Source: Fistulifera solaris (lineage: Eukaryota). From it: DNA of 64,000 nt. Of the stretch, positions 2,053 through 63,883 are shown one piece after another. The stretch is taken from assembly GCA_030295235.1 (NCBI GenBank), contig AP026123.1:2542001-2606000 (forward strand), given 5' to 3'. The number at the start of each line of letters is the position of its first letter. Positions within the stretch are counted from its first letter, which is position 1. The position numbers and the translations under genes are program-made. The notes under the pieces are model-generated. The model was not told the origin of the DNA, searched no databases, and saw nothing but the letters and a program-made list of their open reading frames with translations.

Positions 2053-2327
2053 TACTGTAGGCCCAAAGAGTTGGTTCTAAGGTCAGCACGACTGTATTTC
2101 CAGTCACGAGTCAATTAATTGTGGCAGACTAGGACATTCAAATTTCGTTCATTCTGCTATTTCGATAAGCTACACTGGTCGTTATTACAACGAAACAATA
2201 TTCAGCTCCATAAACGTTGAGGAACTTTATAATATGATGACCAAAAGCTTTGCGAGTCGTTGTCATGCCCGAGTACTATAGGCCCAAAGTGTTGGTTTAC
2301 GGCAACACTGCATTATTTCAGTCACGA
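2053..2327 (+). repeat. dispersed ~220-bp repeat family, 2 core copies (2053-2109, 2274-2327)
   Basis: Core tactrtaggcccaaagwgttggtt...cagtcacga occurs twice, 221 bp apart. Confidence 0.85.
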
Positions 2328-2378
2328 TGCACTAAAAACTGAGTTCTAGGGTTGAATTTAAATGTTTAGTCTAAAAAT

Positions 2379-4304
2379 CTATAACCTACTTTGTATGATC
2401 TTTGATTCAACAACACAGTTGTACGAGTGAAATCCTTCTCCGTGAACAAAGACGTACTTCTGTGGTTGGCTTTCGTCATCGTCGACCAAAGTCGCCCGCG
2501 TCCACCAAGGACCGTCAAATGCGGTATTTTCTAGCGGGCTACCAAGAGAGAAAGGAGCAAGAAACCCGACCTGTAGACCAGATTGAGTTTTATCTTGCTT
2601 TGGCAATGCAAAGTCAAGGCTGGATGACTTGTAGCACGACCCGTCACTCAGGGTTCCGTGCCAATGTACATCTAAAACTTTTCCACTTGTTGTACATTGA
2701 GTGATGAGTACCTCGCTCACAGCGACAAGACCGCGGCCGCTTTTCGATCCTTGCCTTCCCAAACCCTTTCTTTTGATCGAATCAGAGTCTTGATTCACAA
2801 AATTAACGTCACCTGAATAACTTGTATCACAACTAAGAATCCACGCAGTTCTGTTGCAGCCATGAAGCGGTACAGCAATTGGATTCGGCATATCACCTTG
2901 TGGCTGATGACCGGTGCAAATAATAGCTAGTCCGGAGCGACGGAAGAAATCTCGTACCAACTTAACAAATACAGCATCCGTCGGATCATCGCTGTTTGGG
3001 AAAAACGACCGGGGCATTCCGTTCGTACACCACCGATTGTAAACGATAGTTGGGTTGCGTCGCCCCTCGGGTGGAATGGAGCCCATTCCGTACTGCATCA
3101 GCTGCGAGAAGCTTGATTGTTCATCAATCAAATAATATCCCCACGCACCCTCCGACCAAAAGGGCTTTCTCGGTACGTCGTTAAGCGCTTCCTCTTTCCA
3201 TGACGCCACTCTCTCCTTCGCAAAGTTATTCAAGCAAGCTATCCAGCCTTTGATCGACGAAACACCCATATCGGAAGCTTTTGTGTTGTTAGGTAGCCAT
3301 GGCATGGCAAACGTCAGGTCGTCCCAGAATTCGTCCGTGCTAGCTTTTCTACGAGTTACATCTTGCAGTGTATCACTTGTGAATGGCAAGGCTCCGTGAA
3401 CAAACAAAATTTCTCCAAGCTGAATGGCAAGGTTGCCATTCGACAAATATCTCCCCATTTCCCCTTCGGGATGTGTGCTGCGCTGATACGAAATCACGAC
3501 ATCCTCGTCTGTTACAGTGGAAGTAAAATTGTCAGTGCTTTGACCTTTCAGCTCTTTTAGCAATAGTTCTTCTTGCTCAAGTTCCCACTTTCGGTAATCA
3601 AATGCCCTCGGACTGCCCATCGTATTTCTCAAAATCCACTTTAATCGCTCCGAGGGAGACTGCGTGAGCAATTGTCGCTCATCCGGGTCTCCAGTTATTT
3701 TTCTACCTTTTAACCAGTAAACTCCATACGACTCCGGCAACAATCCTTGCTCATCTTGATGCATTTCCTGTAGTAGTCTCATTTTGTTGATATCCCGATT
3801 TCCCACTACAATGTATACATGTTCCGGATACCGTTCTTTCAAATCGAGCAATTGCCGAATAACGTACAAATCCGAGCCCCCTTGATCCCAAATGTCCCCT
3901 CCAAACACCAAATAGTCCCGAAACGGTCGTTGAAAGTCAATGCAATGTTGGTAGGGAAAGAAATTGGTTTCGAGACGAGGAGTACAGGGTCGGAAGCATA
4001 GAACTTTGGACTGTTTCACGTATCGTGTCAGATAGTCGCGGTCGCCTTCAATATCGGTTATGAACGTTATCCTTCGACTGTTAACCTCTGATTGAGAGGA
4101 AAAGACACTAGTTGCCATTTTGGAAGCAGACGATAGATGGTTCCTCCGAGGCAAGAAAGCGGAAATGGAAGTTCGATGGGAAGCAAGAAATATTCGAATC
4201 CAGGGAGATCTCCCTGTTCGAATCGACAGCATTCCTGTACTGCTCCGACCAAAGATCCAATAGAAAGTGAACGCGACTATTCTTTGGATCGTCCGTATTC
4301 TCAT
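2379..4304 (-). CDS. calcineurin-like metallophosphoesterase family protein
   Basis: Ordered motifs TDIEG, GGDIWDQG, VGNRDINK, FVHGA, TGHQPQG, CDTSYS in a 641-aa ORF. Confidence 0.8.
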   Translation of the reverse strand: MRIRTIQRIVAFTFYWIFGRSSTGMLSIRTGRSPWIRIFLASHRTSISAFLPRRNHLSSASKMATSVFSSQSEVNSRRITFITDIEGDRDYLTRYVKQSKVLCFRPCTPRLETNFFPYQHCIDFQRPFRDYLVFGGDIWDQGGSDLYVIRQLLDLKERYPEHVYIVVGNRDINKMRLLQEMHQDEQGLLPESYGVYWLKGRKITGDPDERQLLTQSPSERLKWILRNTMGSPRAFDYRKWELEQEELLLKELKGQSTDNFTSTVTDEDVVISYQRSTHPEGEMGRYLSNGNLAIQLGEILFVHGALPFTSDTLQDVTRRKASTDEFWDDLTFAMPWLPNNTKASDMGVSSIKGWIACLNNFAKERVASWKEEALNDVPRKPFWSEGAWGYYLIDEQSSFSQLMQYGMGSIPPEGRRNPTIVYNRWCTNGMPRSFFPNSDDPTDAVFVKLVRDFFRRSGLAIICTGHQPQGDMPNPIAVPLHGCNRTAWILSCDTSYSGDVNFVNQDSDSIKRKGLGRQGSKSGRGLVAVSEVLITQCTTSGKVLDVHWHGTLSDGSCYKSSSLDFALPKQDKTQSGLQVGFLAPFSLGSPLENTAFDGPWWTRATLVDDDESQPQKYVFVHGEGFHSYNCVVESKIIQSRL

Positions 4305-4487
4305 TACGGGTATTTAGAACAGAAAGCAATGATGAATGCTGATATGAATGATGATGATCTCCATTGCGCTTCGATGAAAACAGTTTCGTCTTTTTTTTTT
4401 GTTGTCGACCTCTTTCCTCTTTTCTCTTATGGGCGTACGACGGACGTGCCAAATAAACCTTAACCTTGGCATGCCGATTAAAATGAC

Positions 4488-5147
4488 CACTATAGTCCAA
4501 GCTTAGCTAGTCTACAATTCATTCATTCGTTCGCCCAATTTCTTGGGCCCCATGTGTCGACGTTGCATTCCAATAGTCCTTAGCAGCGTTTTCATTGCAC
4601 ACCATGATCTTTTCATGTAGTCTAGAAAAGCCTGCGAAACGTTGTCTGCCCTATTTTTACTATGGACCCAAAGTGTTGGTTAAGACAGACCACGACTGAG
4701 TTTCAGTCATGAATCAATATTTTTTCGAGAGACAGGCTTAGCTAGTCTACAATTCATTCGTTCGCCCAATTTCTTGAGCCCCATTTGTCGACGTTGCATT
4801 CCAATAGTCCTTAGCAGCGTTTTCATTGCACACCATGATCTTTTCATGTAGAAAAGCCTGCGAAACGTTGTCTGCCCTATTATTACTATGAACTCAAAGT
4901 GTTGGTTCAGACAGACCACGACTGAGTTTCAGTCACGAATAAACATTCTTTTCGAGCGACAATGCTACCTACAATTCATTCGTTCTCCCAATTTTTGAGC
5001 TCTGATTGTCTTGCTGCAATGCATTAGGCTAAGCAGCGTTTGCATGGCACGCCTTGATATTTTTACGTCGAAGTGCCTGCGAAACGTTCTCTGCCGTATT
5101 TTACTATAGACCAAAGTGTTCGTTGCGCAGACCACGACTGTCGCACT
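4488..5147 (+). repeat. dispersed repeat family, ~3 tandem units (cores at 4658, 4884, 5102; spacing 226 and 218 bp)
   Basis: 4501-4712 and 4736-4938 are near-identical, and the third copy is more diverged. Confidence 0.9.
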
Positions 5148-5389
5148 GGCGAGAATTTTCTCGTGTCTTTCATGCGCCGCCGAACCGCATTATTCACTGC
5201 GTTGAACTCGAAAATATTGCCTTCTGGTGTCAAGAGAAGCCTTATTTATCAATCTTATTGACGACGCCCGTCTCTTTGTTTACCAAACTTTGAACCTAAT
5301 CACGAGAGGGTGAAGGAAGGGGATCATTCGCCGGAATCGTAGCAATTAGCAAATAGCAGTGTCACTATTTCGTGTGAACACAACAACAA

Positions 5390-7541
5390 ATGAGCGTTTC
5401 CGCGAACGAATCTGATTCTCTGTTGCCGTCTAGGCATCATTCGTATGAACGAGAATCCGTCATTACATCCCGGTTTAAAACGATTCTTTTTCTAGTCATA
5501 CTCGTCTTTGCGGGGATCGCTTATCAGAGCGAAGTCAATCAACTACAGTTGTTACTTGAAACCCAGACGGAAAAGATCGATCATCTCGAGGCAGTATTGC
5601 AAATTCACAATGAAGTCATTAATCGATTTAATGCTTCCGTCACCAACTCGGATGTCGTTAAACGACTGGAGACGCTGGAAGATAATTTTGTGTTGACGCA
5701 GACGAAATTGAAAAAAGATCTCCAGAACGTTGAAGACAAGGTATCCGCCGAACTCGCGGATACGCTGCTGTCCCTCAATGCCACCGTCAGTCGAGCGGAG
5801 CGTGAAATTTCCGATGAAGTCGAAAAGGTCAAAAAAGATGTCGAGCACTACGTTGTGACCACGCAAGATCAGTTTAGCATGGAAAATTCGTTTATGGTCT
5901 ACCAACTCGCTGGAACGTTTACTCTGTTGAGTGGCTTGATTTCGATGTGGCACATGACGGCACATTTACGGCGCATGAATCAACCCGATGTCCAGCGCAA
6001 GATATTGGCGATTCTTTGGATGGTTCCCATATACGCCATCACGTCGTGGTTCAGCCTGGTGTTTCATTCGGCGGAAGGTTATTTGGCGATTCTGAAGGAT
6101 GGATACGAGGCCTATGTGATCTACCAATTTCTTTCGTTTTGCATCGCAGTTTTAGGGAAAGGTGATCGAAACGTTGTGATTGATTTACTCGCCAAGAGAG
6201 CCGATCACTTGACTCCGCCCTTCCGGCTCGTCGGTATTCTCGAAGTTTGTGGTTTGTGTCATCCGAAACAATACCCGAGCGACCGGGCTCTCGCTTCCGA
6301 TATCTTATTGCAGTGCCAATTTTTTGCCATGCAATTCGTTTTCTTTCGACCATTGACGACAACGGCTATGGTGGTCTTGAAGAAGATGGACTATTATGGC
6401 GCCGGTACGGGGCCGACGGACTTTCGCTCTCCTCAATTTTATATCACCATCATTCAAAACATTTCGATTTTCACCGCATTCACGGGGTTGTTGAAATTTT
6501 ACCACGCTGTGGATAAAGATCTGGCTTGGTGTCGACCTTTTGCCAAGTTCCTTTGCATCAAGTGCGTCGTGTTCATGACCTTCTGGCAGGGCCTGGCTAT
6601 TTCGATTCTGGCTTCGACCACGGATGTTGGCGGTCAGGATGCTACCGAGTGGGCGCAGTCAGCTCAGAACTTTTTGATTTGTCTGGAAATGTTACTTTTC
6701 TCCATCGCGCATTTCTACTGCTTTCCGACGGATGAATGGGAAGAAGGTTACCGAGTGAAGCATTCCGACGGAAAGTTTGGTGACAGCATTGCTCTGCGTG
6801 ATTTCTTCTCTGATGTGAAACTAATTCTGCGGTACGTTGCTTGTTCGTCCATTACAGCATTTACCATCGTTTTTGACACCTTTCCAGAGCCAATGCGCAG
6901 GACAAAGTTAAAAAGGTCGTTAGCGATTCTGCGATTCCCGAGGGCGATGAAGAAGAAGGTAGCCATGGGTCCAACAAAACCGAAAGCCCAAGTGTGGACG
7001 ACACAGATGTCGGTGCTTCAGTCGATTTAGAAAATAACGGATATCACACGCCCGCGATAGAACATCGATCGCTGCAAAAGAGGAGCAGCGATTAGCACTT
7101 GCTCTGGAAGAGTGTTTGGGACTCGCTGCTGACGACCCGGACATAGCAGAAGCCAAAGAAAGGTTACTGAAGAGTAACTTTCTATCACCAGATATGTTTG
7201 CGGCTTCAGATTCATTTGTTGACGACGATTCTATAGACAAGCAAATCGGAGCGTATTTGGGAGAAAATCTTGACGTTAGTGATGTTGCGGATGAGTCTGA
7301 AGTAGTTCCAGATGGCGATGCCGATGAAGAAATAGGCGATGCCGATTATTATCCGCAGGGAGGTATCTACAGCAACGTGAAATATGTCGAAGACGAGGAA
7401 GCAGCCAAAGAGACAACAAGTCTATTGTCTTCGCCAGACTACAAGCTACGGCCGAGCATCTTTACTACTGTCGCTTCGATAGCCGAACCTGAGCCGGAAA
7501 GTGATCAGAAAAATAAAGAGGAGGAAACATCATCAAATTAA
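5390..7541 (+). CDS. TMEM184: TMEM184 / OST-alpha family organic solute transporter with N-terminal TM plus coiled coil
   Basis: Motifs ILWMVPIYAITSW, YEAYVIYQF, PFAKFLCIKCVVFMTFWQG, QNFLICLEM. Probable intron 6832-6887 (GTACGT...TTCCAG). An apparent frameshift near 7052 joins the acidic tail ending at 7541. Confidence 0.9.
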
Positions 7542-7756
7542 GAAACGCAAGTCAAAATTAATGTTCTACTAGTATTGCAAAGAAATATCAACTGGTACCT
7601 TTGTGATTTGTAGGCGGAACCGCTCATAAAACAACCGATTCCCACAAATTAAGAAACGCAAGCCAAAATTAATGTTCCACTAGTATTACAAAGAAATATC
7701 AACTGGTACCTTTGTGATTTGTAGGCGGAACCGCTCATAAAACAACCGATTCCCAC
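7535..7756. repeat. 111-bp tandem duplication of the convergent intergenic region
   Basis: 7535-7645 versus 7646-7756, with 3 substitutions seen. Confidence 0.95.
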
Positions 7757-10700
7757 TCGCTCGCAGCAGCTTTTTCTGTCGCTCCGAGAGTAATTTGTCT
7801 AGCAATGAACATTGAAAGGTCCTTCTCTATCCAATACGAAGAGTGAGCAGCGAGTGCAGCTACATATTCGTTAGCACTTTCGATCTCCTTCTCTTGAAGC
7901 ATGTAATCGATGCGTCTGCCCTGATTGAGAGCGCCTGCTTTAACACCAGTGGAACTTGGATCATCCGAACTGAAGGCGGATTCCAAGTCGTCGTCTCCCT
8001 GTTGTGCCAATGAAGAATCCATCAAGCCCATACCGACTACTTTGGCTTCAAAAGCCGCCAAGAAATTTTGCTGCGTTTGCCAAGTAGAGTCGACAAACAT
8101 TCTCCATAAACGCTTGGTCTGGTATTGAACTCGCAGACCTCCATTCCAATGCGCCATAATCATGGGGTCATATTCAGAGTTCCTAGGGTCAATGCAGGGC
8201 TCAAGTCTGTACGCAACCGGGTCGTAGGGGTGAAAAATGTTGAAGACTCGATGACATCCTTTGAGATAGAAAGATTCGGTCAATGGCGCTCTCTGGTTTC
8301 GAATCATGAGAAACACCGCAACCGGTGATCCCAAAAGGAAAAAGTTATCGACACTAAAATCAAGTTGCGGATACGAATAGTCTACTGGTTCGTTGCTCGG
8401 CTCATACGATAATTCCGAGGTTTGGCTCATTTGCGAAAGGGGACTTCCATACTGAAGCAAGGAATCTAAGCTTTCACTTGATTCGTTTTTCTGTTCAACG
8501 AGCAAAGATTCGTCATTGACCTGAAGATGCTCACACCGTTGATTTGAAAGAATATCCCAGCTGATAATGGAGCCCAGGCTGTGACCTATGAGCGAAATTC
8601 CACCTTTGAAACCTGTTAACTCGCGAAACTTCTCAACAACAACATTCATCTCATTGGCTACGACGTCAACAATAATATCATGGTGCTCAGGACTCATAAA
8701 GTAAAGGACGTCCATAAGTGTATCATTTGCAAACTCTCTCATTTGAGGAATTGTCTTGAGTGAGATGTCATTGAGCATGACATTTTTTCTCGTCTTCCCT
8801 GAATCGGTAGCGGTTGCTGTAGATGCCGCCCTTCGTTGCGAAACGATTGAAAATGCTTCGTGCCATTCAATGGGCAGGTATTCAACTCGACCTTTTTTCT
8901 CCCCCTGCGTGAGAGAGAGAAGCTCGGACTTCTTCGATCTCCACGTGATTCTTTCTCAGAAAGCCACAGCAGTCAACAATGGACGAAAGGTTTGGAAGTG
9001 AGAGACCGAAAACATCCATCGATTGCATCATTTCACCGATACCATGAACAATGAGAACGAGGTGGTCCGTTTCTTGTGCCTTGTGGTCAACCAAGTTTTT
9101 CGCCATATCATTTTCATAGAGTCTCTTCGTTGGTACAGCGAGCGAAGCAAACGGGGATTCTTGGTTCGTTGTGAGAACAAAACCTGTTTCAGATTTTGAT
9201 GGCGGTGGAGCTAAAACGGATCGTATGGATACATCGGGTACCATCGTCTCGCCTAGCGTCCCGCTCTCTTCTACCGCCTGCAGTATTGATTCTGTAATAG
9301 ACCGCGGTGCACTCTCCGATAGTAACGTTCGGTCCTTTTCCAACCAAGCACCACGGTACACCCTCCGCTTGAACATTGCAATAGCCGCGCCCAACCCTTT
9401 CTGAATCACTGTTGCGTACGTCAGGGAGCTAAACTGAACCAGAACCGTCCCTTCGCCCAGATTTGGTACTTCCACTGTGAGAAGAGCCCCATCAATTTCC
9501 ATGTTGTGATCAAAGGCGCGTCGCAAATTCATCCAGTTCAAAAACAAATAGGCATCTTCCAATAACGCTTGGGCCTCATCCCCAAACGGTTGTAGTCCAC
9601 GAGCTGTGTCGAGAAACCAGTTGGAGCGCCGCACTTCGTCACCCGGTCCATAGAATCGCCAAAGCGTCGGTCGCATAATCATCGTCAAGGGAGGAGGCGC
9701 AAATGCCGCCATGGGACCCGTTTTATCTTGTTCTTGTTCACAGCATGTCGGACAAAGATCACCTAATTGCCTTGGTGCCATAATTTGCTCGGGTAATTCC
9801 TTCCGACACAAGGGGCAGCACAGTCGAAACGAGACAGCGTGGCGATTTTGATCCACCAAAACGTCCGACAATGGATCTGGTTCGTACCATTTTGCTATCG
9901 TCGAGTATTTGGTATCATCCAGTCCTCCGCCGTCATTATTATTTCTGCGTGGATGATACGAATGCCGAATTCTTCCTTCCCGGACTATTTCTCTGTAACG
10001 TTGTTCTAAATCTTTTTGTTCTTGATTGCGACAACAGATCCACGCAGCATCCTTCCCAGGATGTCTGCCGTTGATATAAGGAAGTCGAAACCATAAAGGA
10101 GAGATTTCCGACCCGCCGGTGACTTCGTCTAAATCATACGTATCCCCCGAACCCACCAAAAACGGATCTTCCAATGCGCGATAGTTGGGGTACGGACACA
10201 ACCATTCGTCATCTTCCGTCAAGGACGACCCCCGTTGTTTTAAAACTCCCGTCAATACCAGGTCATCGTACAAGGGACGATTGTGAAAGCGAATGTGCGC
10301 CGCCAGTTCGTACCGGGCGACCGGATCATTGAGACTGAAATACCGATCACAAATGTGATCAATGACATCTTTCTTAATCATACTATCGAGTGTGGCGTAC
10401 GGACCACTCCCCAGCACTTTCCACTGCGTATGCGATAACGTGCGCGTAATGTTGGCGTCGGCGCGTTTGATGTAAAGACACAATTCTCGAAACATGGTCG
10501 AAAGGGCCCATTTGGTTCCATTGAGGGCAAAGTCGACGGTATCCCGGACTTTTTGACGGGACGGAATGGGATATTGCGCAATTTCCCAACTGCGCTGCAC
10601 AAATCCTACCGTGAAACATAGGGCCGGCACGAGAAAGTTTTCTCCAACGAACGGTACTTGTTTCGCCAGATCGAGTGTTTGGACGCCCAAATGAATCGCT

Positions 10701-11115
10701 CCATCACTTTGAAAAAAGCCAATCACCCCCAAAGCCACGTGCTCGGCTCCAAAAAAGGCTGGCAAAATAATCCAATCACGAACGGGTAAAAGAAACCGTG
10801 TTCGATCTTGCCGGTCCCATCTTTCGTGGCATTGTAAATGCCGCGGGCCGATTTCAAACAAGCGACCGACAATCCTCGGAGAGCTGTGTAAGCGGCTTCC
10901 CATTGATCGACGGCCGACAAGGCGGCTTCGATCGAAGCATCATTCGAATCCCACACCACTTGCTTGGTGGTCATGGCGGCGTGTCGTCCGACACGTTGCA
11001 CGCGCAACAACGGATGCGTCGATTTTTTCTTCTTGTGCAGATAGCGATACGGAACAAAGGGAGAAATAATGGCGTCGTCGCGCGGGGAAGTAGGAGGTTT
11101 CGGGGGATGATTCAT
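7735..11115 (-). CDS. DDHD-domain phospholipase A1 (PA-PLA1/SEC23IP-like)
   Basis: Motifs DHLVLIVHGIG, RVEYLPIEWH, lipase GHSLG, FLLGSP, NIFHPYDPVAYRLEP, RIDY, HSSYW. Three ORFs are joined by apparent frameshifts near 10790 and 8895. Confidence 0.9.
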
Positions 11116-11815
11116 TTGTGAGTTGTTTCGGATGCAAAGGAGAGTCTATGTGACAAGATAACCGAGCCAGAGAAGTTATGATAGAGGTCCGGCATTTAAA
11201 CTTTTCGTGCATTGCGTGTCAATGCCGTCGTCGCTTGGTTCAAACGAGTGTATTGTTTTCCGTCTCGCCTCTACACTATGCACCATAATGGCAAATGCTG
11301 CATCGAAGAAACAGCTCCGTCACAGTCTCTCCGGCATTGAACAATACCCATGGAACCTGACTATAGATCTAGAGAGTGTTCTCGGGTGTGCCGGACGGAG
11401 GACGACGGAGGAAAAAAGTCTTTCCGGCATTGAACAATTTATTTCTTACTAAACCTTCTACGGAGTAAGACCTATAATCATTGGGGATTGGGGCCCTTTT
11501 TGGGGGATTCAAATTGCTAGAAACCGTTATAGTAAAATTCACAACAAATGTGAGTGATTATTGAACGCTACGTAACTCCTCTAAAAACTGCTGCTTCTAT
11601 AAACAATTAACAGGAAATAGACCTCAAGTGACACTGAAAGAGGATGTTTGACGGTTGATTGTTGCTTTGGTGGCTGTTAAAGAGAAAACGAAGCAGAATC
11701 ACCTGTTAATTGATTTCATTTAATATAGTAGGACGAACAAAGGATGGTAGTGAAGCCGACATTGCTTTGTTGTGATGTCAATGGCGACGTTTTGTTTTTG
11801 TGAAAGGCAGTGATT

Positions 11816-13616
11816 CATGACTACTGTACAATCCAGTCTTGGATCGAGTAAACCCACACTCTGTTTCATAGTAAAAAATTCATTGTGTCGTTCCTCAGAT
11901 TTCGACGTGAAAATAGAAGAAATTCTTGACAAGTAGTTTAAAATTATCATTGTTGAGACTTAATATACTCATAATGATAAATATATTCGCAGTTGAATGA
12001 AAATGGACAAAAGCGAGAGACACCAAACGGACTCTTTTGTTGTTCGGTTCATGACTCATTACTACTGTACAAACCAGTCTTGGCTGGCGTAAACCAACAC
12101 TACGTTGCATAGTAAAAAATACAAGGTGTCGTTCCTCAGATTTTCGACGTGGAAATAAAAGAAATTCTTGACAAGTAGTTTAGAATCATCATTGTTGCCA
12201 CTTTTTTACCCATAATAGAATTAAATTCGCAGTTAAATGACAATGGACGGATTCGAAAGACACCAAACGGAATCTTTTGTTGTTCGGTTCATGACTCATG
12301 ACTCATGACTACTGTACAATCCAGTCTTGGCTGGCGTACACCAACACTACGTTGGACAGTAAAAAATACAAGGTGTCGATCCATGGATTTTCGACGTGGA
12401 AATAAAAGAAATTCTTGACTCTTGACAAGTGGTTTATAATTATCATTGTTGAGACTTAATATAGATACTCATAATGATAAATATATTCGCAGTTGAATGA
12501 AAATGGACAAAAGCGAGAGACACCAAACGGACTCTTTTCATCACTCATGACAACTGTACAATCCAGTCTTGGCTGGCGTAAACCAACACTACGTCGCATA
12601 GTAAAAAATACAAGGTGTCGATCCATGGATTTTCGACGTGGAAATAAAAGAAATTCTTGACAAGTAGTTTAGAATCATCATTGTTGCCACTTTGTTTACC
12701 CATAATTATATTTAAATTCGCAATTGAATGACAATGGACGGATTCGAAAGACACCAAACGGAATCTTTTGTCGTTCGGTTCATGACTCATGACTCATGAC
12801 TAATGTACAATCCAGTCTTGGATCGAGTAAACCCACACTCTGTTTCATAGTAAAAAATTCATTGTGTCGTTCCTCAGATTTCGACGTGAAAATAGAAGAA
12901 ATTCTTGACAAGTAGTTTAAAATTATCATTGTTGAGACTTAATATACTCATAATGATAAATATATTCGCAGTTGAATGAAAATGGACAAAAGCGAGAGAC
13001 ACCAAACGGACTCTTTTGTTGTTCGGTTCATGACTCATTACTACTGTACAAACCAGTCTTGGCTGGCGTAAACCAACACTACGTTGCATAGTAAAAAATA
13101 CAAGGTGTCGTTCCTCAGATTTTCGACGTGGAAATAAAAGAAATTCTTGACAAGTAGTTTAGAATCATCATTGTTGCCACTTTTTTACCCATAATAGAAT
13201 TAAATTCGCAGTTAAATGACAATGGACGGATTCGAAAGACACCAAACGGAATCTTTTGTCGTTCGGTTCATGACTCATGACTCATGACTACTGTACAATC
13301 CAGTCTTGGCTGGCGTACACCAACACTACGTTGGACAGTAAAAAATTCATTGTGTCGTTCCTCAGATTTCGACGTGAAAATAGAAGAAATTCTTGACAAG
13401 TAGTTTAAAATTATCATTGTTGAGACTTAATATACTCATAATGATAAATATATTCGCAGTTGAATGAAAATGGACAAAAGCGAGAGACACCAAACGGACT
13501 CTTTTGTTGTTCGGTTCATGACTCATTACTACTGTACAAACCAGTCTTGGCTGGCGTAAACCAACACTCCGTTGCATAGTAAAAAATACAAGGTGTCGTT
13601 CCTCAGATTTTCGACC
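11816..13616. repeat. satellite array, ~7.4 monomers of 241-249 bp alternating A/B (dimeric ~488-bp higher-order repeat)
   Basis: An actactgtaca-type marker recurs at 11820, 12061, 12308, 12550, 12799, 13040, 13287 and 13528. A units carry tgttgagacttaatat and B units carry tgttgccacttt. Confidence 0.97.
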
Positions 13617-13646
13617 TCCAGGAAGAGCCGAGGCATGCAGAACTTT

Positions 13647-13668
13647 GGGGGGGGGGGGGGGGGGGGGG
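13647..13668 (+). repeat. G22 homopolymer
   Basis: Direct count, located 30 bp after the array end. Confidence 0.9.
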
Positions 13669-15303: not shown

Positions 15304-15375
15304 TGGCTATCAACTATAGCATCGAATATAATATACTCAAAAAAGATTAAAAGGTGTATTTACATGATACAACGA

Positions 15376-18992: not shown

Positions 18993-19442
18993 ATTGTTTT
19001 ATATTTTGTAATGATGACAAGAAGAGCAGAATGGCCAGATTAGTATTGGTCGCAATGATGCTCTGTTGCGAGGGTTGCGAGTGAGTTGACGATGTGAGTT
19101 TTGCGAGAGATGACGATGATGCGCGGACGAGAATAAATCCGCAAGAACGTGCGAAAGTCAGACCGCGTGACTGCGTCCAGAGTTTCTGTATGATTGAAAT
19201 AAAACTGGTCCTGAATTCTGACCCTGCCCCAGATTTTCTGTAGGAGGCGCGTGACTGAAAGATCTTCTCAAAAATAGTCTACGTCGTCCATAAACTCCAT
19301 ACGTTGCTGAAAATCCATGTGAATTGCTGAGCCTCCATTTTATATATTTACGTTGAACAGTGTCGAAGTTATTTTTCCGCAGCATATGAATGGCACGCAT
19401 TGATTTGATACCGAAAAGCTTGGAAGGCTATATCCGTCGCAT

Positions 19443-19715
19443 TAGTGTATCGGCCAAAGTGTAGGCGACCTTTTCCACGACTGAAGCTCAGTCATGAATA
19501 TAAACTGCTTTGAGTCAGACCAATACCCAACCTTTGTTTTTCTGCAACCATTTTAACCTACATTTACTTTTGATCGAAGCCTACTTACTGCTATCCGTTT
19601 TTTCCGTGCACGCATCGATGGACGATGTCGATAAGCGTGGAGAACGTTGTCATTATTTATTACTATAGATCAAAGTGTTGGTTTACGCCTATCCACGACT
19701 ACTATTCAGTCATGA
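19443..19715 (+). repeat. dispersed repeat family, 2 cores (19443-19497, 19661-19715)
   Basis: ggccaaagtgtagg..ttttccacgactgaagctcagtcatga and tactatagatcaaagtgttggtttacg..cacgact..cagtcatga, ~218 bp apart. Confidence 0.85.
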
Positions 19716-19784
19716 GTCATGAGACAACAAAGATGAAAAAATGACACAAGCTGACAACTAATTTTTTTAAAAAAATGTTCTCGT

Positions 19785-25292: not shown

Positions 25293-25715
25293 GTTGATGT
25301 ATTTCTTATGCCTTGCTGGCTTCTCTCTTTCGAACTCTCACTTAAAACTGATACTCCTGGTGAATGAGCTGATATAGAAAGGATGTCAATGCTTGGATCG
25401 CTTTCGTTCCTTTTTGTGAATAATAAGAGACATTGGCATCCTCGCCCACAATGCGAGAGTGTGTCGAAGGAAAAAGAAGGAGATGTCTTTTTTCGCGAGA
25501 CTTCTGGTTACCGCATGGTCGGACGGACCTTGGTCGTAGTAAAATCGAGAGGGCACACACTGGCTAGGAATGTTTTCCATGAACGAACAGACAACGATGA
25601 GCAAGATCATTCGACGTCTAGAATGACATCATACAGTAGCACAAATAGCTGTAGCCTACCAGTAATGAGCAAAACAATTGCAAATTGAAGCAGTTCGCAT
25701 CGATTGAATCCTGAT

Positions 25716-26177
25716 TCATGACGGAAATGCAGTCGTGGTCAAATCCGGGCAACACTCTGGTCCATAGTAACTTTCCGAAGACAACGTTTCGCAAGAATCA
25801 TTCACGACAAATAGCCGAGTGAGCAGTTCATGCTGCTTCCCGTTCAAGCACAGTGATGGAAGCGTGTCAAGCTAGCAATGGACGGACACGACGGAAGTGC
25901 AGTAGTGCTTTCGATAAAACAACATTCTCATGTTTTTTCTTGCTACTCTCAATTTTTATTTTATTTATTTTATTTGCTGCAAAAGCATTCAATCAGTTTT
26001 CAATACAATGTAGTGCAACTGATAAGCAAAAAGTGTTGTTGATTCATTCGCTTGCGACGCCGATTCTTTTCCTTCTTCCGTCGAGCGAGACGAGCGGAGG
26101 CTCGTTCGCAGTCTGGCTCCTTAGCTGAGTGACTGAAATGCAGTCGTGGAAAAAGTAATATACACAATGAGCTATAG
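25716..26177 (-). repeat. dispersed repeat family, 2 minus-strand cores (25716-25792, 26129-26177)
   Basis: Reverse complements read gcgaaacgttgt..ttactatggaccagagtgttg..accacgactgcatttccgtcatga and ctatagc..gtgtatattactttttccacgactgcatttcagtcac. Confidence 0.8.
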
Positions 26178-26441
26178 CTGGTTCCAAATTAGTCGCAGCG
26201 GTAAGCGCACTTAATTCGACCTTCGACCTTTGTTTACCTTTTCCCGTGTGCGCGCACCGCGCGCTCTAAAATTTCCCTCCGCAACAACAAACGCAATAAC
26301 GCAACAAACAACGCAACAAAAATAACCGCAAAGAAATAAAACCAACAACAACGTTCTATATTACATCATTGTCACTTTTACTCGACCCGGATCTCTCTTC
26401 TCAACAAGTTCGAATCAGAAAAGCATTAAACGGGAAACGCT

Positions 26442-30331: not shown

Positions 30332-30519
30332 CTTTCGCAAGTTGCACCACATACGTCTTTAGAGTAATCCATACGCTTAGATGAAAATCATAATTCAAAC
30401 TAGGTTGTGGGGGTTGATGATAGTTGCGGAGTCCATTGTGGTTGAACCGCATTTTAAAACTTTGATTCCTTTCGAAAATCATTGCGTTCAAAGTTATGTC
30501 TTCCGAATGTTTCGTATGG

Positions 30520-30765
30520 ACTATAGGCCAAAGTGTAGATGACTTTTTTCACGACTGCAAGTCAGTCACGAGTCACGATTCTGCTGAGCCAGATTTCATC
30601 GCAAATATTCGGTTCGCTCTGTAATTTTGGTGAACTCCTTTTGTTCCTAGCATAGTCAATTTTACCATTTGAATGATTTTCAATGCACGGCTCAATATTT
30701 TGCTTCAAATTTGCTTCCGAGTCGCTGTCGACCTATACACTAGCACGACTGCAGTTCAGTCATGA
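30520..30765 (+). repeat. dispersed repeat family, 2 cores (30520-30571, 30732-30765)
   Basis: ctataggccaaagtgtag..cacgactgcaagtcagtcacga, followed by cacgactgcagttcagtcatga. Confidence 0.8.
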
Positions 30766-31309
30766 ACCGTGGTTGGCAGAGCCGCAGACTTCGCAGCCTA
30801 ACGTTCTTGCAACTTACTAAGCCTTCAGCTCTATCGTGATTGCCTCATATCCATTTGTATTTCAAATCACACATATCTACCATTCACTTGTCCGCTTGCA
30901 ACGATTGGGAGGCATCTATGAGGTATTAGCTTTCCGATCTAGAAGAGGATTTTAGTCAATTGATGGCACCAAGCAGGAGCACCGGTTGTTTTTAATAAAC
31001 TAACACAGTTCATGAGAGTTTTTAGCTGCCTTTGCATTGAACCCTTCACCTGGCAATTGCAGTGACGCTCTGAGGATACCCGTTACATAATGATCAATGC
31101 AAATTGCACTTTATATCAAAGGCGTGATCTAAAACTGACTATTAGCAGAACCCGCTTATGACGCCGTTTCTTGCAAATTGATTCTGCTTTACATTTCTAT
31201 CAACGCATTACCTAAAAGCATCGAAATCGGATGTCGCGTTCCGTTAACGATTGTGTGTCGTGATACTCCGGAATACCTCGATGTAGAATTTCTAACTTTA
31301 CGTTTTTAA

Positions 31310-51283: not shown

Positions 51284-51713
51284 AAATGATACTTTGAAAC
51301 AATTTTTAAATTTAGATTAAGTTATTATTAGCCAATTTTGAATAGCATTTGTAGTCCTCTCTTTATACCAGGTAGGAAGGGAAAAAGCAACAGTGATGGC
51401 GTTCGACCATCTGTGACTCATGACTTAAGTCCAGTCGTGATGAAACAGGATGCACACATTTTATTGGACAATGGTGAAAGTCTTCATGGCGGATAGCTCG
51501 ATGTAGAAAACTACCAGTATACAAGTAGCGCATAGTCGTTTTTCTCTTGCAGTATGACTCAGAGCTATAGAAGTACAGCGACTTTGTTGTGTTCATCGAT
51601 GTTGCCGTCGATTTCTTGAGGACGTAAAATAAAGAATTCACGTGCGCGCAATTACGCCGATCGAAGAGAGTAAGCATAGGAAATTCTTGTCATTTATGTT
51701 CTACTTTCACAAC

Positions 51714-52769: not shown

Positions 52770-53155
52770 TGTTGTGTGCAAAGGTATCTCTTTTGACATT
52801 GTTATAAAGGAAAGAGAACACACGTTTGCAACAAAAGGAATTGAAATATTCCTGAAGATTCATTCATGCTCATCATCGTCATTTCGATCATCGCATTTTG
52901 CATCGGCGGGTGAAAAAAGCCGTTGATAATTTGATCGTACCACCACTCGTGATCCATGTAAACGATGCCGTAGCGACTTTCACGCTCCGGCCGATGGGCT
53001 CTCCAAGCATCTCTGATTCATTCACTCTCATGATCGTAGACGGCTATGAACCTCCGTTATCATTATTCTGCTAACATGATTAGCTAGCTAGTCTATGCTT
53101 GTCATTCGCCTTGAAGTTACTCTGAAATTTTTACGTATCAACGGGTTTCTGGTGA

Positions 53156-53209
53156 ACTATAGGTCTAAAATGTATATTACCTTTTTCCACGACTGCAGAT
53201 CAGTCATGA
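53156..53209 (+). repeat. dispersed repeat family, single core
   Basis: actataggtctaaaatgtatattacctttttccacgactgcagatcagtcatga. Confidence 0.8.
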
Positions 53210-53810
53210 GTTGAACCGGACTACGGAGTATTATGGTTACCTAGCTAGACCCTATAACTAACTTCATTCGTCTTTTAAAAAAAAAAAGATCGACAAATCC
53301 TTGATGATTCTTTCCTGTATAGTCATTGCGGATGTTAGTCTTTCGATTATACTAAATCAAATTATCCTTTCAATGAATCATTCAAAGCACGCAGTACGGA
53401 AAAATGGGCTCGAATTCGAGAAAAAAAAATAAGAACTATTTTATTGGATGGAGAGCTAGTCGCTTTAGGGTCACCTACTGTATCCATAGGATGCCATGGC
53501 AGAATATTTTTGTTCCAGATGCTATTCATGAATCGCAAATTTGTGTAGTTTTGCATTTGACTTTTGACGAACAATGTGAACTGCCACCTGCTTCCATGAT
53601 TGGAATAGCACTTTTGCCTTTCAGGCGTCCACAAAGCTGGCTCTGCTAAATTTACAAGATACAGTACACGTCTTGTCGACCATCGCCTACCCAAGCTCCG
53701 TTGACACACTTTATCGATTTGAAGGAATCAACCCATGACTAACTTTCAAGCCAGGTGGAATATACTCTTGTCGAGCCTGTTCCTGTTTCGTCAATGCGCC
53801 ACCAGTACTG

Positions 53811-57556: not shown

Positions 57557-57614
57557 TTCTTTCGTTAAAACCAGTTTTATAGACAATTTTGGTTATTCTT
57601 GTCCTTTTATCTCT

Positions 57615-58717: not shown

Positions 58718-58912
58718 GAACAGTAAAAGGGTCGATGCATCATAATTAGATGGACGCTCGAATGCTTATCTATCGACTGATGCACCGCGAAATGAGATCT
58801 TTTGCTTCATTCGTATCCGCTGTTGAAAACAATGCAATCGTATCGAAGCAAAGGATCGCGATAAGGAGAGCGTTTTTGCGAGCTGCGAGCGGCGGACGAG
58901 TTTTCGCATAAC

Positions 58913-58970
58913 TCATGACTGAATCCAGTCGGAGAAAACTAGGCTACCCGCTACACTTCGGCTTACAGTA
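58913..58970 (-). repeat. dispersed repeat family, single minus-strand core
   Basis: Reverse complement reads tactgtaagccgaagtgtag...ttttctccgactggattcagtcatga. Confidence 0.7.
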
Positions 58971-59429
58971 CCGTGACATAGGCCGTCAACGTCAGAGACC
59001 AGAAATCATGCCAGAAACGAAGCAAAGTATACATTCTTGTATCAAACCGACGTATTCGTACGTACTTCTAAATCAACACTTCTGAACTCACAGGTCCAAG
59101 GTCCAAGTCATTGCGGTCATTTGTCATTCGGATTACACCGCGTTCCAACTTCGCAGATCAGCATCACTTTATCGTTCGATGTTGATGCGTGGCTCCCGAT
59201 CGAGGGGGGATGATGAATAGAGTAGATTCAAGACGACAGATCGGCGTTCGGATGCATAATTCGAAACAGGATGAATCAGAAAAATTCGCATTTGCAACCA
59301 GCTTTCGGCATTACGTCTCCGTGCAGGCATTAAATTCGCCCAAGAACTCATCGGAATTCCGATCATTAGCTACCAACTTCCGAAACTTTAGCCACCCGTC
59401 GCCATTATTTTGTCACCGCCTCGAAAAAC

Positions 59430-61789: not shown

Positions 61790-63832
61790 GTTTGAAATAT
61801 GTTATTCGATGAAAAGGAATCAAAGAAACTGGAATTAAGGCAAGCTGCTCGTACGATTCCGGGTCGCTTCTCACTATCTTTCTTGTGTATGACACGTCTG
61901 TTGTTAGCGCTTGCCTTCTCTGCGTTCTTCTTTTTTCTATCTTTTCACGAAAAATGAATCACTTGAATGACAAGACCAGCAAGAAAGGAAGTTGTATTTG
62001 TATAACAGAAACCTTTCGTTGCGTCGAATAAGATAAGTGTCATCGTTCGTTTGGTCGCAAAAAAAGCGCAGCGCGGCGCCGAGCAGCGGCGAGAACATCC
62101 CTCCAAAGAACAAGAGACAAGTCACAGTGCGACTTTAACCATGCTAACTATTTAGCTGTCTACATATATTCTGTAAAAGTACCAATGATCACACCACTTT
62201 ATTTTGAGGTCTATGGTCTATGGGGGAACCCCTAAGGACGTCCTTAGGAACCCCATCGTGAGACGTGAGAATCAGAAGTAGCGTAGAATTTCTACGTTCT
62301 TTTCGTACCGAAATTCCGGGTTATTTTTGCTTACAACGTTCAAATCACCACTTTACGCTCACAAACTATTGATAACGAAAAGGACAGATTAAAGCCATAA
62401 CAAAGTCAACAAAGTAAAAAAATCCTTTACATCAGTTACCGCTTAGTTGTTTAGATCACGGTGCTAAACAGGAATTTTACTGGGAACCTTTGTGCGAGCC
62501 AAGCATCAGCAAGATAACATCTACCACCGTTTCACGAGGCACATGCCCTCGTTCAGAGCAAAACTGAATTATCACTAGCGTTTGCGCACACCGACTGCTT
62601 GTGCAATAACATTTTTCAAAATCTCAAAAGGTGTATGATTGTAGCATATTGTTTCTTTCTCATGGGAGTCTCTACCGTGCAATGGCGACAGAAGTGGCGA
62701 TTCAGGTCTATGGGCACAGGAGGCCGTAGTTTGACGCTTCGTAGTGCATCATAAGTTTTGTAACTGCTCTTTCATCGAACTTCTGCTTCTGCGACTTGTC
62801 GAGTAATAAGATTCAACTTGCACATTATGACCCCATTGCCTCGCCAATGCAAACAGAATGACTTGAGTTCTGCTGATGAAAGCAGTTAGGTCTCAACCAC
62901 TTCGAAGCAGCAGTGTATTGTAAAAATGATCTTTTTCCTCTATACCGTCTATTCTTTCCAAGACAGCCTATCGTATTCAACAGCATTAACAGTTGCTCTC
63001 TTGACTGACTTGCCGAGCTTTTCATCCGGGTATCAGTATCGAGAGTTCTTTGCAAGTGAAGGCATTTGCGTAAATTTCCCAATGACGACTGCGAAAATAC
63101 GATACGCGCGTCAACACCCTCTTTGCTTGACCAGTTTATTGTAGAGGTGAATGGAGAAACAGTACATCAACAACCACGTCCTGCATATTATCGAGAACAA
63201 CGCCGTCACAGCCTCGTAAGCTGTCATGACGTCGGAGCCTTTGCGGTGCATCTACGCTAAGTGATCGACTTAATTTGTGATCGCTCGCTAAGCAAAGAGA
63301 ATATTTTCGTGGATTGCGGGCGTAATAACTGTTAACATTAGCAATGATCTTTGAATGCAACAACATGGTGAAATTGTGGTGAATTCAAATGGCAGTTTGA
63401 TTTTTGAAGCCGACGCAAGGCTTTTGTCTATTTCAAAAACGTGTTACTACACATTTCGTCATAGTTAAAGTTTTGTACCAGTGCTACGGCCGAGGCTACG
63501 GCACTTCTGATTTTTCACCATGGGGTTCCCCCATTGCCCATTGTGCACCAATGCCAATGTCGTCTTCTCTGACATGGACAATTCGTACCATTTAAGGATA
63601 ATCGACATCGAGTTAACAGCAATACGTGAAAATACTAAACTAATGCAACGCCTCGAATGTTTACGTAAAATTCACGTAGCGCTTTTACTGGTATGAACAT
63701 TTGGACAAAAATGATACTCCGGAGTAGAAATGTATGCACAGTATTTATTTTTAACTTTCAAGGCTTTAAGGGGTTACAGGTCTCATTTGAAACGCAACAA
63801 AATCGAAAAGCTTTCAGATCGTCGACTGGATC

Positions 63833-63883
63833 ACTATAGGATCAATGTGTTGGTTCTAGGCGACCGCGACTGAATTCCAGTCA
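63833..63883 (+). repeat. dispersed repeat family, single core
   Basis: actataggatcaatgtgttggttctaggcgaccgcgactgaattccagtca. Confidence 0.75.

Follow-up and report, generated by a model that had tools for sequence, protein, structure and literature searches.

An intergenic repeat of Fistulifera solaris with a conserved palindromic core appears to be of satellite type and neither a folded RNA nor a rolling-circle transposon

In Fistulifera solaris, the short palindrome GACTG-N5-CAGTC recurs between genes as part of a longer repeat. What kind of repeat is it, and in what form is the palindrome conserved? The copies were surveyed in one 64-kb window of an F. solaris contig; the window is the whole stretch of 64,000 nucleotides that was analysed. 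The motif GACTG-N(4-6)-CAGTC occurs there 10 times against 0.15 expected, and none of 100 shuffles reaches 10. For the upstream box TACTATAGRCCAAAGTGT, allowing up to 3 mismatches, the window has 5 matches where 0.08 would be expected. Using a core profile (nhmmer), we found 23 copies at 10 intergenic loci, and the matches add up by hand to 3,041 of the 64,000 bases. The profile is not circular: a version built from the first three loci only (7 copies) recovered all 16 remaining copies (E < 0.01), and the full core profile gave no matches in 10 shuffled windows. The motif count and the cross-validating profile indicate that the unannotated intergenic repeat system proposed in a preliminary description of this DNA is real. 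The conserved core of about 95 bp lies within a monomer of about 220 bp and consists of three boxes: box 1, (TCGAAAAG)..GCGAAACGTTGTC; box 2, ACTATAGGCCAAAGTGTTGG; and box 3, CCACGACTG-N5-CAGTCAYGA followed by one to three GTCAYGA heptads. The palindrome belongs to box 3.

The preliminary description put the system at about 9 loci, which understated its extent. A copy was found at all 14 positions that it listed, and 13 of them are full cores (nhmmer E <= 2e-11). At 30732 the copy is only partial: box 3 is kept and box 2 is absent. The list lacked 8 related minus-strand cores (11790-13620), a weak partial copy (51395-51460, minus strand) and, at about 4487-4510, a truncated unit. Its "degenerate traces" (11360 and 29246-29310) had to be abandoned; they give no profile match even at E <= 10, and only single boxes are visible by eye. 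It turned out that none of the copies overlaps the 23 ORFs of at least 250 aa, as expected from the claim that the cores lie outside coding sequence. Scans of metagenome and viral sequences for the repeat gave chance-level matches only. The copies in the window are the following.

2028..2150, plus strand: locus A, unit 1 core (nhmmer E 3.5e-14, pattern match; palindrome 2090-2105, 6-nt loop)
2229..2356, plus strand: locus A, unit 2 core (nhmmer E 2.8e-16, sequence; left arm mutated to CACTG...)
4487..4510, plus strand: locus B, truncated first unit (by eye, no profile match; box 2 (ACTATAGTCCAAG) fused to the post-core box)
4604..4763, plus strand: locus B, unit 1 core (nhmmer E 1e-31; palindrome 4694-4708)
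4835..4984, plus strand: locus B, unit 2 core (nhmmer E 1.4e-30; palindrome 4920-4934)
5053..5155, plus strand: locus B, unit 3 core (nhmmer E 3e-21; right arm decayed to CTGGC)
11790..13620, minus strand: array T1, made up of 8 related monomers, each 241-249 bp long (8 profile matches, E 1e-24 to 6e-31; TRF 7.4 copies; unit alignment; depth)
19404..19536, plus strand: locus C, unit 1 core, T-run subtype (nhmmer E 7e-20; palindrome 19479-19493)
19624..19750, plus strand: locus C, unit 2 core (nhmmer E 1.5e-23; left arm GACTA; two GTCATGA heptads)
25668..25801, minus strand: locus D, downstream unit core (nhmmer E 5.3e-24; right arm CCGTC)
26090..26223, minus strand: locus D, upstream unit core, T-run subtype (nhmmer E 2.4e-13; palindrome 26131-26145)
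30470..30614, plus strand: locus E, unit 1 core, T-run subtype (nhmmer E 1.8e-20; palindrome 30553-30567; two GTCACGA heptads)
30741..30787, plus strand: locus E, unit 2 partial core, box 3 only (nhmmer E 2.5e-6; palindrome 30747-30761)
51395..51460, minus strand: weak partial copy, box 3, with AAGTC as right arm (nhmmer E 4e-8; between two convergent gene ends)
53110..53251, plus strand: locus F, solo monomer, T-run subtype (nhmmer E 4.4e-16; palindrome 53191-53205; post-core box TAGCTAG on either side)
58892..58992, minus strand: locus G, solo core (nhmmer E 3e-9; palindrome 58917-58930, 4-nt loop; 183 bp upstream of the start of a palmitoyl-thioesterase ORF)
63801..63913, plus strand: locus H, solo core (nhmmer E 9.9e-19; palindrome 63868-63882)

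The monomers stand head to tail in short intergenic arrays of 1 to 8 units. Neighbouring cores are separated by 218, 226, 215, 218, 194 and 411 bp, and by 241-249 bp in T1; the unit pairs at loci A, C and E are 194-226 bp apart. The three units and the truncated one at locus B are 82-98% alike. In T1, a higher-order period of 488 bp runs over the 8 monomers, and the core is a variant of the form CCAAGACTG-N(7-11)-(C)AGT(A)GTCATGA, with one to three GTCATGA heptads after it. In the alignment of the T1 units, variable positions are not depleted within the core.

Comparison between loci bore out the claim that the arms are conserved and the loop is free: identity is 0.81 and 0.77 in the arm blocks (CCACGACTG and CAGTCATGA, respectively) versus 0.41 in the loop. 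The other core blocks have an inter-locus identity of 0.73 (CAAAGTGTTGG), 0.65 (ACTATGGAC) and 0.46 (box 1), and outside the core it is 0.37 in the post-core part and 0.33 in the spacer. In about half of the copies, TGA(G/A)TCA lies 3' of the right arm. The monomers of loci A and B align over 276 bp with a score of 124 (shuffle maximum 38), and those of C and E over 217-237 bp with a score of 84 (shuffle maximum 31). The DNA between the cores had been described as only weakly homologous between loci. Weak homology does hold, over whole monomers, but this DNA cannot be treated as unrelated. Therefore, the unit is a diverged monomer and not a core joined to foreign DNA. Outside the core, monomers of different loci have diverged almost to saturation.

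We then considered the palindrome as a folded structure. The 5-bp stem pairs in 89.5% of 95 cells, which is matched by 500 of 500 shuffles, and no pair is altered on both sides, as a compensatory change would be. Single arm changes disrupt the pairing in c2274, c19661, c25716 and c5102. The consensus fold energy (alifold) is -0.25 kcal/mol, or -0.2 kcal/mol for the minus strand, and a DNA hairpin of the palindrome would have only -3.5 to -4.2 kcal/mol. Without compensatory changes and a consensus fold, it is the DNA sequence that is conserved and not the pairing. Thus, the palindrome is kept as DNA sequence rather than as a base-paired stem, and the suggestion of a hairpin under selection is not supported. 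Rfam gave no match at gathering scores in the whole window and none at E <= 10 for loci B and C. A tRNA or tRNA-like part of the repeat was looked for and not found. The features of a ribozyme were also looked for and not found.

A longer stem can be drawn if the copies are read as a family of small non-coding RNA genes on the minus strand (relative to the orientation of the preliminary description). Box 3 would then fold into a hairpin of 9 bp, two of them G.U pairs (UCAUGACUG-loop-CAGUCGUGG). We regard this reading as improbable. On the minus strand, 82.9% of 170 cells in the extended stem are paired, compared with 68.4% on the plus strand, which is a weak hint, but the paired fraction is reached by 420 of 500 shuffles and there are no compensatory pairs in the 9-bp stem either. 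One stem pair is A-U in 11 copies and G.U in 5, and at two further pairs 12-14 of 19 copies have U.G; these variants speak for such a stem. For one B unit, the minus-strand RNA has a better fold than 200 of 200 shuffles (z -3.5), whereas no advantage over shuffles was seen in two other copies (z 0.14 and -1.5). Tandem units of about 220 bp are a common layout of small RNA genes, which also counts in favour. The minus-strand consensus energy and the Rfam results given above count against it, and neither a consistent T-run terminator nor an upstream promoter box was seen.

The repeat is not confined to the window. Copy number was estimated indirectly, from summed contig depth in two DNA runs; both the homoeologous subgenome and matches between units inflate it. 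The depth is 160-206 at 4670-5336, 1090-1420 over T1 (12007-12673) and 67-78 at 19344-20000, with about 12-45 in the other bins (baseline for T1, about 13-25). Depth this far above the baseline over the repeats means that there are further copies elsewhere in the genome. Contigs that match from 4690 rightwards but diverge upstream number 24 in X1 and 12 in X2. Contig joints connect B-like cores with C-like downstream DNA, and an additional genomic copy, seen in the letters between a joint, keeps GACTG-N5-CAGTC with yet another loop.

Such copies could be parts of a transposon: a non-autonomous rolling-circle element (Helitron/Helentron, HINE-like) or another DNA-transposon carrier, with the arrays as internal tandem repeats and the palindrome as the 3' stem-loop. 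To this we assign a low probability. Tandem multimers are known for Helitron/Helentron elements, and their short palindrome potentially forming a stem-loop has a likeness here. But no conserved terminus follows the palindrome of the diatom repeat (CTRR lies within 20 nt after the right arm in only 3 of 22 copies), the copies have no common 5' or 3' ends, and the stem is only 5 bp, not GC-rich, with a free loop. The nine arrays have no common flanks (0 of 36 pairs above shuffles on either side) and no subterminal inverted repeats (0 of 9), and transposase, Rep or helicase domains were found in none of the 19 long ORFs scanned in the window. The label "Helitron/Helentron-like" is thus not sustained. 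A 19-nt inverted repeat surrounds one B core, but it is absent from all 7 other loci scanned. Two DNA contigs from other parts of the genome have a CACATTTTCTGG minisatellite within 15-20 nt after the core, which hints at a composite element; this minisatellite is also present downstream of locus C, at a distance of 150 bp. The solo copies argue the other way, since their core is contiguous and not divided between two element ends.

The dispersed arrays of 1-8 monomers resemble short satellite-like arrays scattered through gene-rich DNA, for example the Cg_HINE arrays of the Pacific oyster (PMC7492417). The oyster monomers of 140-250 bp also stand head to tail, mostly 2-5 per array, and the arrays are scattered in both orientations; divergent monomer groups have in common only short segments or motifs of low variability, and one family also has longer homogeneous arrays (PMC7492417). 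However, the oyster arrays belong to a defined element that inserts at TT; its left and right flanks are conserved, and it has subterminal inverted repeats of 11-12 bp, a microsatellite and a 3' palindrome (PMC7492417). In the diatom, the nine arrays are without common flanks or subterminal repeats, and the palindrome lies within every monomer. MITEs and tRNA-derived SINEs are likewise small, non-coding, intergenic and multi-copy. A MITE was rejected, as no terminal inverted repeats are common to different loci, and so was a tRNA-derived SINE, as a tRNA-like part and an A-rich or simple-repeat tail are lacking and the units stand in tandem.

A core conserved beside saturated monomer bodies would also be predicted by host-level selection in place. 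It is possible, though unlikely, that the repeat is a co-opted cis-regulatory or chromatin module. Host selection would then preserve a composite binding site at each locus, and this site would act on the neighbouring promoters as an enhancer, an insulator or a nucleosome-phasing array. It would combine the palindromic dimer site with TGA(G/A)TCA sites, which we take to be AP-1/GCN4-like, and an (A/T)CAAAG-like box; the TGA(G/A)TCA after the right arm in about half of the copies fits this composition. Eight of the 10 loci adjoin the 5' end of at least one ORF, and 5 of these lie between two divergent starts; one further locus adjoins a 3' end only, with the window end on the other side. However, in a compact genome three quarters of the intergenic regions contain a promoter anyway, and therefore 8 of 10 is no enrichment. 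A transcript with very high coverage has its 5' end about 140-450 bp downstream of locus A, but over the loci the orientation to the nearest gene start is mixed, the distances vary between 183 and more than 2,000 bp, and one copy (51395-51460) is flanked by 3' ends on both sides. Other intergenic arrays in the window also consist of palindromic factor-like motifs, which supports a regulatory role (TTCnnGAA is present at 8.1 per kb in T2 versus 0.48 per kb elsewhere). On the other side, the homogeneous high-copy T1 and the depth excess suggest amplification dynamics and not site-by-site selection.

The organism itself offers another comparison. In putative centromeres of F. solaris, Maeda et al. 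(bioRxiv 10.1101/2021.11.10.468027) report three MEME motifs, which are found again at intervals along 43 of 44 chromosomes and show a correlation with the maintenance of episomes. Our loci might be akin to these, as sequence-defined replication-origin (ARS-like) or centromere-associated modules, but we consider this very improbable. Both sets are intergenic, and the published motifs are conserved blocks of 40-50 nt, clustered narrowly and recurring along chromosomes; two of them contain ATTCGACTG and its complement CAGTCGAAT, with CGACTG and CAGTCG resembling our CGACTG / CAGTC half-sites (10.1101/2021.11.10.468027). However, as far as the motifs are spelled out there, they differ from the repeat beyond the hexamer and are absent from the window, where a 31-nt and a 22-nt part of them have no match with up to 3 mismatches. 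The common letters amount to 6-10 bases and may be due to chance. About one locus per 6 kb, intergenic and with short sites in tandem, would suit origins. A low-GC trough is typical of diatom centromeres, and the window has none except for 0.39 over T1.

The explanation that we favour, at evenly balanced confidence, is that the copies form a lineage-specific, satellite-like monomer family whose core would be a protein-recognition platform. CENP-B-box-like satellites have a short conserved box in monomers that otherwise diverge freely. That box is a proposed site for a transposase-derived protein, possibly promoting the rearrangement and spread of arrays. The diatom monomers have such a conserved part too, but it is unrelated in sequence and far longer (three boxes, about 95 bp), and the arrays that contain it are short and euchromatic, in a compact genome. 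Judged from its sequence, box 3 may be recognised by a putative DNA-binding protein. The box has two inverted half-sites of 5 bp, separated by one helical turn and kept in sequence without covariation. They would suit a dimer, in line with the earlier suggestion of a dimeric protein-binding site, and the flanking GTCA/TGA(G/A)TCA repeats would suit extra half-sites. Counted against this explanation are the T1 core, which is not depleted in variable positions, and the half-site argument, in which the sites are something that we infer.

In such a protein-recognised satellite, the arrays would grow, shrink and homogenise locally through unequal exchange; this fits both the full-length likeness of 82-98% within a locus and the 488-bp period of T1. 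New loci might be reached by excised circles that reinsert or by an unrecognised carrier. Selection for recognition would keep the core while the rest of the monomer drifts, and it might serve the spread and rearrangement of the repeat itself or a use that the host acquired later.

The pattern GACTG-N(4-6)-CAGTC occurs 10 times in the window versus 0.15 expected, and a count of 10 was reached in 0 of 100 shuffles. The upstream box occurs 5 times, with 0.08 expected. A first profile was built from 13 cores, and its hits in the window fall into three tiers. The first tier contains 13 hits (E <= 2e-11). The second contains 10 hits (E from 4.5e-6 to 1.3e-3): eight on the minus strand inside the array at 11.8-13.6 kb, together with a partial copy at 30740 and a weak copy at 51411-51460 on the minus strand. 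The third tier is a single row with E 9.6. The full profile gave no hits in 10 shuffled windows. In the cross-validation, a profile of 7 copies from the first three loci recovered all of the 16 other copies at E < 0.01. A wider profile of 170 columns became stable within three rounds at 23 copies in 10 loci, and the profile matches total 3,041 bases (a hand sum), or about 5% of the window. Thus, the intergenic repeat system reported in the preliminary description is a real and locally abundant family, with these 23 copies in 64 kb. The "degenerate traces" reported at 11360 and 29246-29310 were not recovered by the profile even at E <= 10.

Loci of the repeat family in the window
2028-2356, plus strand: locus A
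4487-5155, plus strand: locus B
11790-13620, minus strand: tandem array T1
19404-19750, plus strand: locus C
25668-26223, minus strand: locus D
30470-30787, plus strand: locus E
51395-51460, minus strand: weak partial copy
53110-53251, plus strand: solo copy F
58892-58992, minus strand: solo copy G
63801-63913, plus strand: solo copy H

The aligned copies share three conserved boxes across about 95 bp.

Conserved boxes of the aligned copies
Box 1: GCGAAACGTTGTC, often with TCGAAAAG before it
Box 2: ACTATAGGCCAAAGTGTTGG
Box 3: CCACGACTG-N5-CAGTCAYGA, then one to three GTCAYGA heptads
Weaker post-core box, after box 3: ..CAATTCATTCGTTC..

Two subtypes can be distinguished. The first reads GTGTTGGTT...GACCACGACTG, and the second reads GTGTAGAT.. 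with a T-run immediately 5' of CCACGACTG. The two occur side by side at loci C and D, with the T-run subtype on the upstream side. A TRIM or solo-LTR was rejected on this difference between adjacent cores, and no primer-binding-site-like sequence was seen by eye. Among the 10 exact matches to the palindrome, the loop is 5 nt long in eight, 4 nt in one and 6 nt in one; the T1 core variant has a longer loop. As in a satellite, units of constant length stand head to tail: eight in T1, three at locus B and pairs at loci A, C and E. The core-to-core spacing is 218 bp at A, 226 and 215 bp at B, 218 bp at C, 194 bp at E, 411 bp at D and 241-249 bp in T1. Tandem Repeats Finder describes T1 as 7.4 copies with a higher-order period of 488 bp.

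BLAST alignments between loci are limited to 27-95 bp round the core. Local alignment of A with B extends over 276 bp with a score of 124 (the shuffle maximum is 38), and that of C with E over 217-237 bp with a score of 84 (shuffles, 31). This homology covers the whole monomer; therefore, the unit is a diverged monomer of about 220 bp rather than a core amid unrelated DNA. Locus B starts with a truncated unit and ends with a decayed one, and solo copy F retains post-core boxes on both sides, which is the picture expected for old arrays eroding at their edges. A 19-nt inverted repeat (4616-4634 and 4733-4751, 84% complementary) brackets exactly one locus B core, because the unit start CTAGTCTACA recurs inverted within the unit. 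A scan of 8 loci for inverted repeats did not find this pair at the other loci. A MITE was rejected, since terminal inverted repeats are not common to the copies: the 19-nt pair brackets one B core only, and the flanks show no complementarity.

We compared the conservation of the parts of the core between loci.

Mean inter-locus identity
CCACGACTG: 0.81
CAGTCATGA: 0.77
CAAAGTGTTGG: 0.73
ACTATGGAC: 0.65
Box 1: 0.46
Loop: 0.41
Post-core: 0.37
Spacer between box 2 and box 3: 0.33

Within the window the arms are conserved and the loop is free, as had been described: the two arm blocks have the highest values in the table, versus 0.41 for the loop. The refuting condition set in the preliminary description, arms conserved no better than the loop, therefore does not hold in the window. 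The inverted half-sites stand at a fixed spacing and are better conserved than the DNA between them, as is found at sites of dimeric transcription factors or recombinases. Box 3 is a candidate recognition site at the DNA level, in which two inverted 5-bp half-sites would lie one helical turn apart, and putative iterated half-sites of the GTCA type adjoin the palindrome. The arms are kept no better than the adjoining unpaired letters. In the 5-bp stem of 19 copies, 89.5% of 95 cells pair, a value matched in 500 of 500 shuffles, and no pair has a change on both sides. Single arm changes break the pairing in four copies. The RNAalifold consensus energy on the originally described strand is -0.25 kcal/mol, and as single-stranded DNA the hairpin reaches only -3.5 to -4.2 kcal/mol. 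Folds of 101-103-nt cores on the plus strand are no better than shuffles (z -0.23, 0.50 and -0.11). Thus, the proposal of a hairpin under selection is not supported.

On the opposite strand the stem could reach 9 bp via two G.U pairs. In this extended stem 82.9% of 170 cells pair, versus 68.4% on the originally described strand, and one of its pairs alternates between A-U (11 copies) and G.U (5 copies). The opposite-strand fold of one locus B unit beats 200 of 200 shuffles (z -3.5). These observations favour, as a minor alternative to protein recognition, a reading in which box 3 acts as an RNA hairpin. However, the folds of two other copies are not better than shuffles (z 0.14 and -1.5), the opposite-strand stem contains no compensatory change, and its consensus energy is -0.2 kcal/mol. 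A long-range stem round the core was also rejected. Complementary hexamers were seen by eye in two to three copies (GTTGTC/GACAAC in one C unit, GACACC/GGTGTC in T1), and elsewhere they are not equivalent in position or nested. Two small sequencing runs (X3 and X4) resemble poly(A) RNA: their joints are spliced, with CT..AC ends, and one loose end is poly-T. Their zero coverage over 4003-5336, 11340-14007 and 19344-20000 is no evidence on expression; libraries of this type would also lose small RNAs.

A search of the whole window against Rfam gave no hit at gathering score, including no match to tRNA, 7SL or 5S, and at E <= 10 loci B and C gave chance-level hits only. A structured RNA or a self-cleaving ribozyme satellite was rejected on this blank result and on the lack of covariation on either strand. 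The presence of CGAAAC, GTC and a ...TGA box in the element had raised the possibility of a hammerhead, which was rejected as well: CUGAUGA is absent, the order and spacing of the boxes are wrong by eye, and Rfam is blank. ARAGORN found no tRNA genes. A tRNA-derived SINE was rejected on this, on the Rfam result and on the aligned copies, in which no A-rich tail is seen.

The preliminary description had also suggested a Helitron- or Helentron-like element. Of the 22 copies that could be anchored (one of the 23 could not), 3 have CTRR within 20 nt 3' of the right arm. Among 9 arrays, none of the 36 upstream and none of the 36 downstream pairs shares flanks above shuffles, and complementarity between upstream and downstream sequence, which would indicate subterminal inverted repeats, was found in none of the 9. 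The 19 long ORFs scanned carry no Rep, helicase or transposase domain. With a stem of only 5 bp in addition, a Helitron-like origin is unsupported. Among published systems, the oyster Cg_HINE elements come closest to such short, dispersed, satellite-like arrays. Their flanks are conserved and carry subterminal inverted repeats, and they also have a microsatellite and a palindrome at the 3' end (PMC7492417). These features are absent from the F. solaris arrays. Downstream of locus C, at a distance of 150 bp, there is a 34-bp CCCACATTTTCTGG minisatellite, which in two contigs from elsewhere in the genome follows a core within 15-20 nt. This pairing hints at a composite element. The minisatellite is located at 19872-20160 on the plus strand, between locus C and the ORF that starts at 20313; it has a 34-bp unit with about 5-8 copies of CCCACATTTTCTGGAGACGTGAAAA, and 7 of the 11 matches to its motif in the window fall here.

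F. solaris is an allodiploid, oil-producing pennate diatom. We compared contigs of two DNA-like sequencing runs (X1 and X2), which span the whole 20-kb stretch, with window positions 1-20000. Many contigs are only 90-95% alike to it (369 of 612 in X1, 332 of 600 in X2), and RNA-like contigs differ from the window by 25-36 letters per 350-590 bases. Such differences are expected if the runs contain the second, homoeologous subgenome of the allodiploid.

Summed contig depth (inflated by the second subgenome and by cross-matching of units; it indicates more copies, not a number)
4670-5336: 160-206
12007-12673: 1090-1420
19344-20000: 67-78
Other bins: about 12-45

In both DNA runs the repeat is covered at 3 to about 70 times baseline depth, and for dozens of contigs the match is limited to part of a unit. 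One group of contigs (24 in X1, 12 in X2) agrees with the window from 4690 rightwards and departs from it upstream; its consensus is similar to the T-run subtype of box 2. Several joints link B-like cores to DNA like that downstream of locus C. Between one joint a further genomic copy can be read, with GACTG-N5-CAGTC kept and a different loop. Contig depth is thus indirect evidence for many genomic copies, as in a satellite. A scan of metagenomes with a core pattern of 20 specified bases found 7 loci, all of them chance hits, because their GC content is 52-70% and the profile match is limited to the pattern itself. A scan of viral contigs found 10 loci, also chance hits; the profile hit one of the 10 (E 1e-4), covering just the pattern.

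The long ORFs of the window are eukaryotic and include OST-alpha, DDHD, a Cid1-type poly(A) polymerase, HSF, Ariadne and others. The Ariadne ORF shares 100% identity with a protein listed by NCBI under F. solaris. No copy of the repeat overlaps a long ORF in the window, so the observation that the core never falls inside a recognised CDS holds. Eight of the 10 loci adjoin at least one gene start, and five of these eight lie between two divergent starts; the divergent genes at 4304 and 5390 have an array between them. One of the remaining two lies between two 3' ends, and the other has a single 3' end and the window end. Thus, the reported position, mostly upstream of genes or in divergent intergenic regions, stands as a description; it is not an enrichment, because about three quarters of the intergenic regions in a compact genome contain a promoter. 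The copies show no uniform orientation towards the nearest start, which lies between 183 and more than 2,000 bp away. A core promoter with a TCAGTY-type initiator was rejected, because cores that lie 183 to more than 600 bp away from the start codon do not fit it. Other features were observed in the same intergenic and genic DNA.

Other features of the window
1430-1834, minus strand: 134-aa ORF adjoining locus A, in a stretch (1359-1894) covered at depth 2640-2880 by the two small RNA-like runs, with a poly-T loose end at 1359 and contig ends at 1888-1894; it resembles a short gene with very high expression
7534-7756, plus strand: perfect-looking 111-bp tandem duplication (2.0 copies, 97% matches) adjoining the 3' end of the DDHD-domain ORF
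16294-16392 and 16614-16729, minus strand: CT..AC joints in the RNA-like runs, marking introns of 97 and 114 bp in or adjoining a GST-like gene
31822-33063, plus strand: T2, a separate, different tandem array (213-bp period, 3.6 copies, 92% matches, 55-bp sub-period), about 450 bp upstream of a receptor-like ORF at 33500
39664-42726 and 44072-47134, minus strand: 4.4-kb tandem duplication, 74-84% identical, with paralogous AAA_16/STAND-type NTPase genes
49242-49410, plus strand: pair of 68-nt direct repeats (88% alike, separated by 101 bp), about 750 bp upstream of the HSF gene

T2 is dense in palindromes, CCAGAAATTCTGG and TTCTGGAA among them. The density of TTCnnGAA is 8.1 per kb in T2 versus 0.48 per kb elsewhere, and the array looks heat-shock-element-like. 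The window that bears T2 also encodes HSF (50168-51283). The 260-aa ORF through T2 is probably spurious.

Searches of the literature on F. solaris repeats and on diatom tandem repeats, promoters and palindromes gave no description of the family. A search for the core strings together returned no relevant paper, the one match being rapeseed markers. According to a preprint by Maeda et al. on the chromosome-scale assembly of F. solaris, putative centromeres contain three conserved motifs, which are repeated along 43 of the 44 chromosomes and show a correlation with the maintenance of episomes; two of the three contain ATTCGACTG and its complement (10.1101/2021.11.10.468027). We searched the window for parts of motifs 1 and 3 with up to 3 mismatches and found no matches, so a relationship to the repeat core is only a lead.

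With moderate confidence, we regard the repeat as a lineage-specific satellite-like monomer family in short dispersed intergenic arrays, whose core is conserved in sequence most likely for protein recognition. Such recognition may serve the repeat's own spread or a host function. A further reading, which we consider improbable, is that the core is a diatom chromosomal module. Its roughly 95 bp would serve as a platform for a putative dimeric protein, possibly transposase-derived or lineage-specific, and would be iterated between genes at nucleosome-scale spacing. It would act as a replication origin (ARS) or as a boundary and phasing element, with a possible kinship to the CGACTG-containing episome-maintenance motifs, and host selection would keep the copies while the rest of the monomer drifts.

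F. solaris produces oil, is under engineering and has short intergenic DNA. A family that occupies this share of the window beside many gene starts affects promoter definition, comparison of homoeologues, repeat assembly and guide design. With divergent monomers that keep a three-box core, it is a clear example of a "conserved box" satellite in a protist whose genome is compact. Here, selection for the repeat's own spread and selection for a host function can be told apart simply by comparing the two subgenomes. If the core binds a specific protein or supports replication, diatom episomes and synthetic promoters would gain a useful component. If it proves to be a host chromosomal module, the finding would matter far more.
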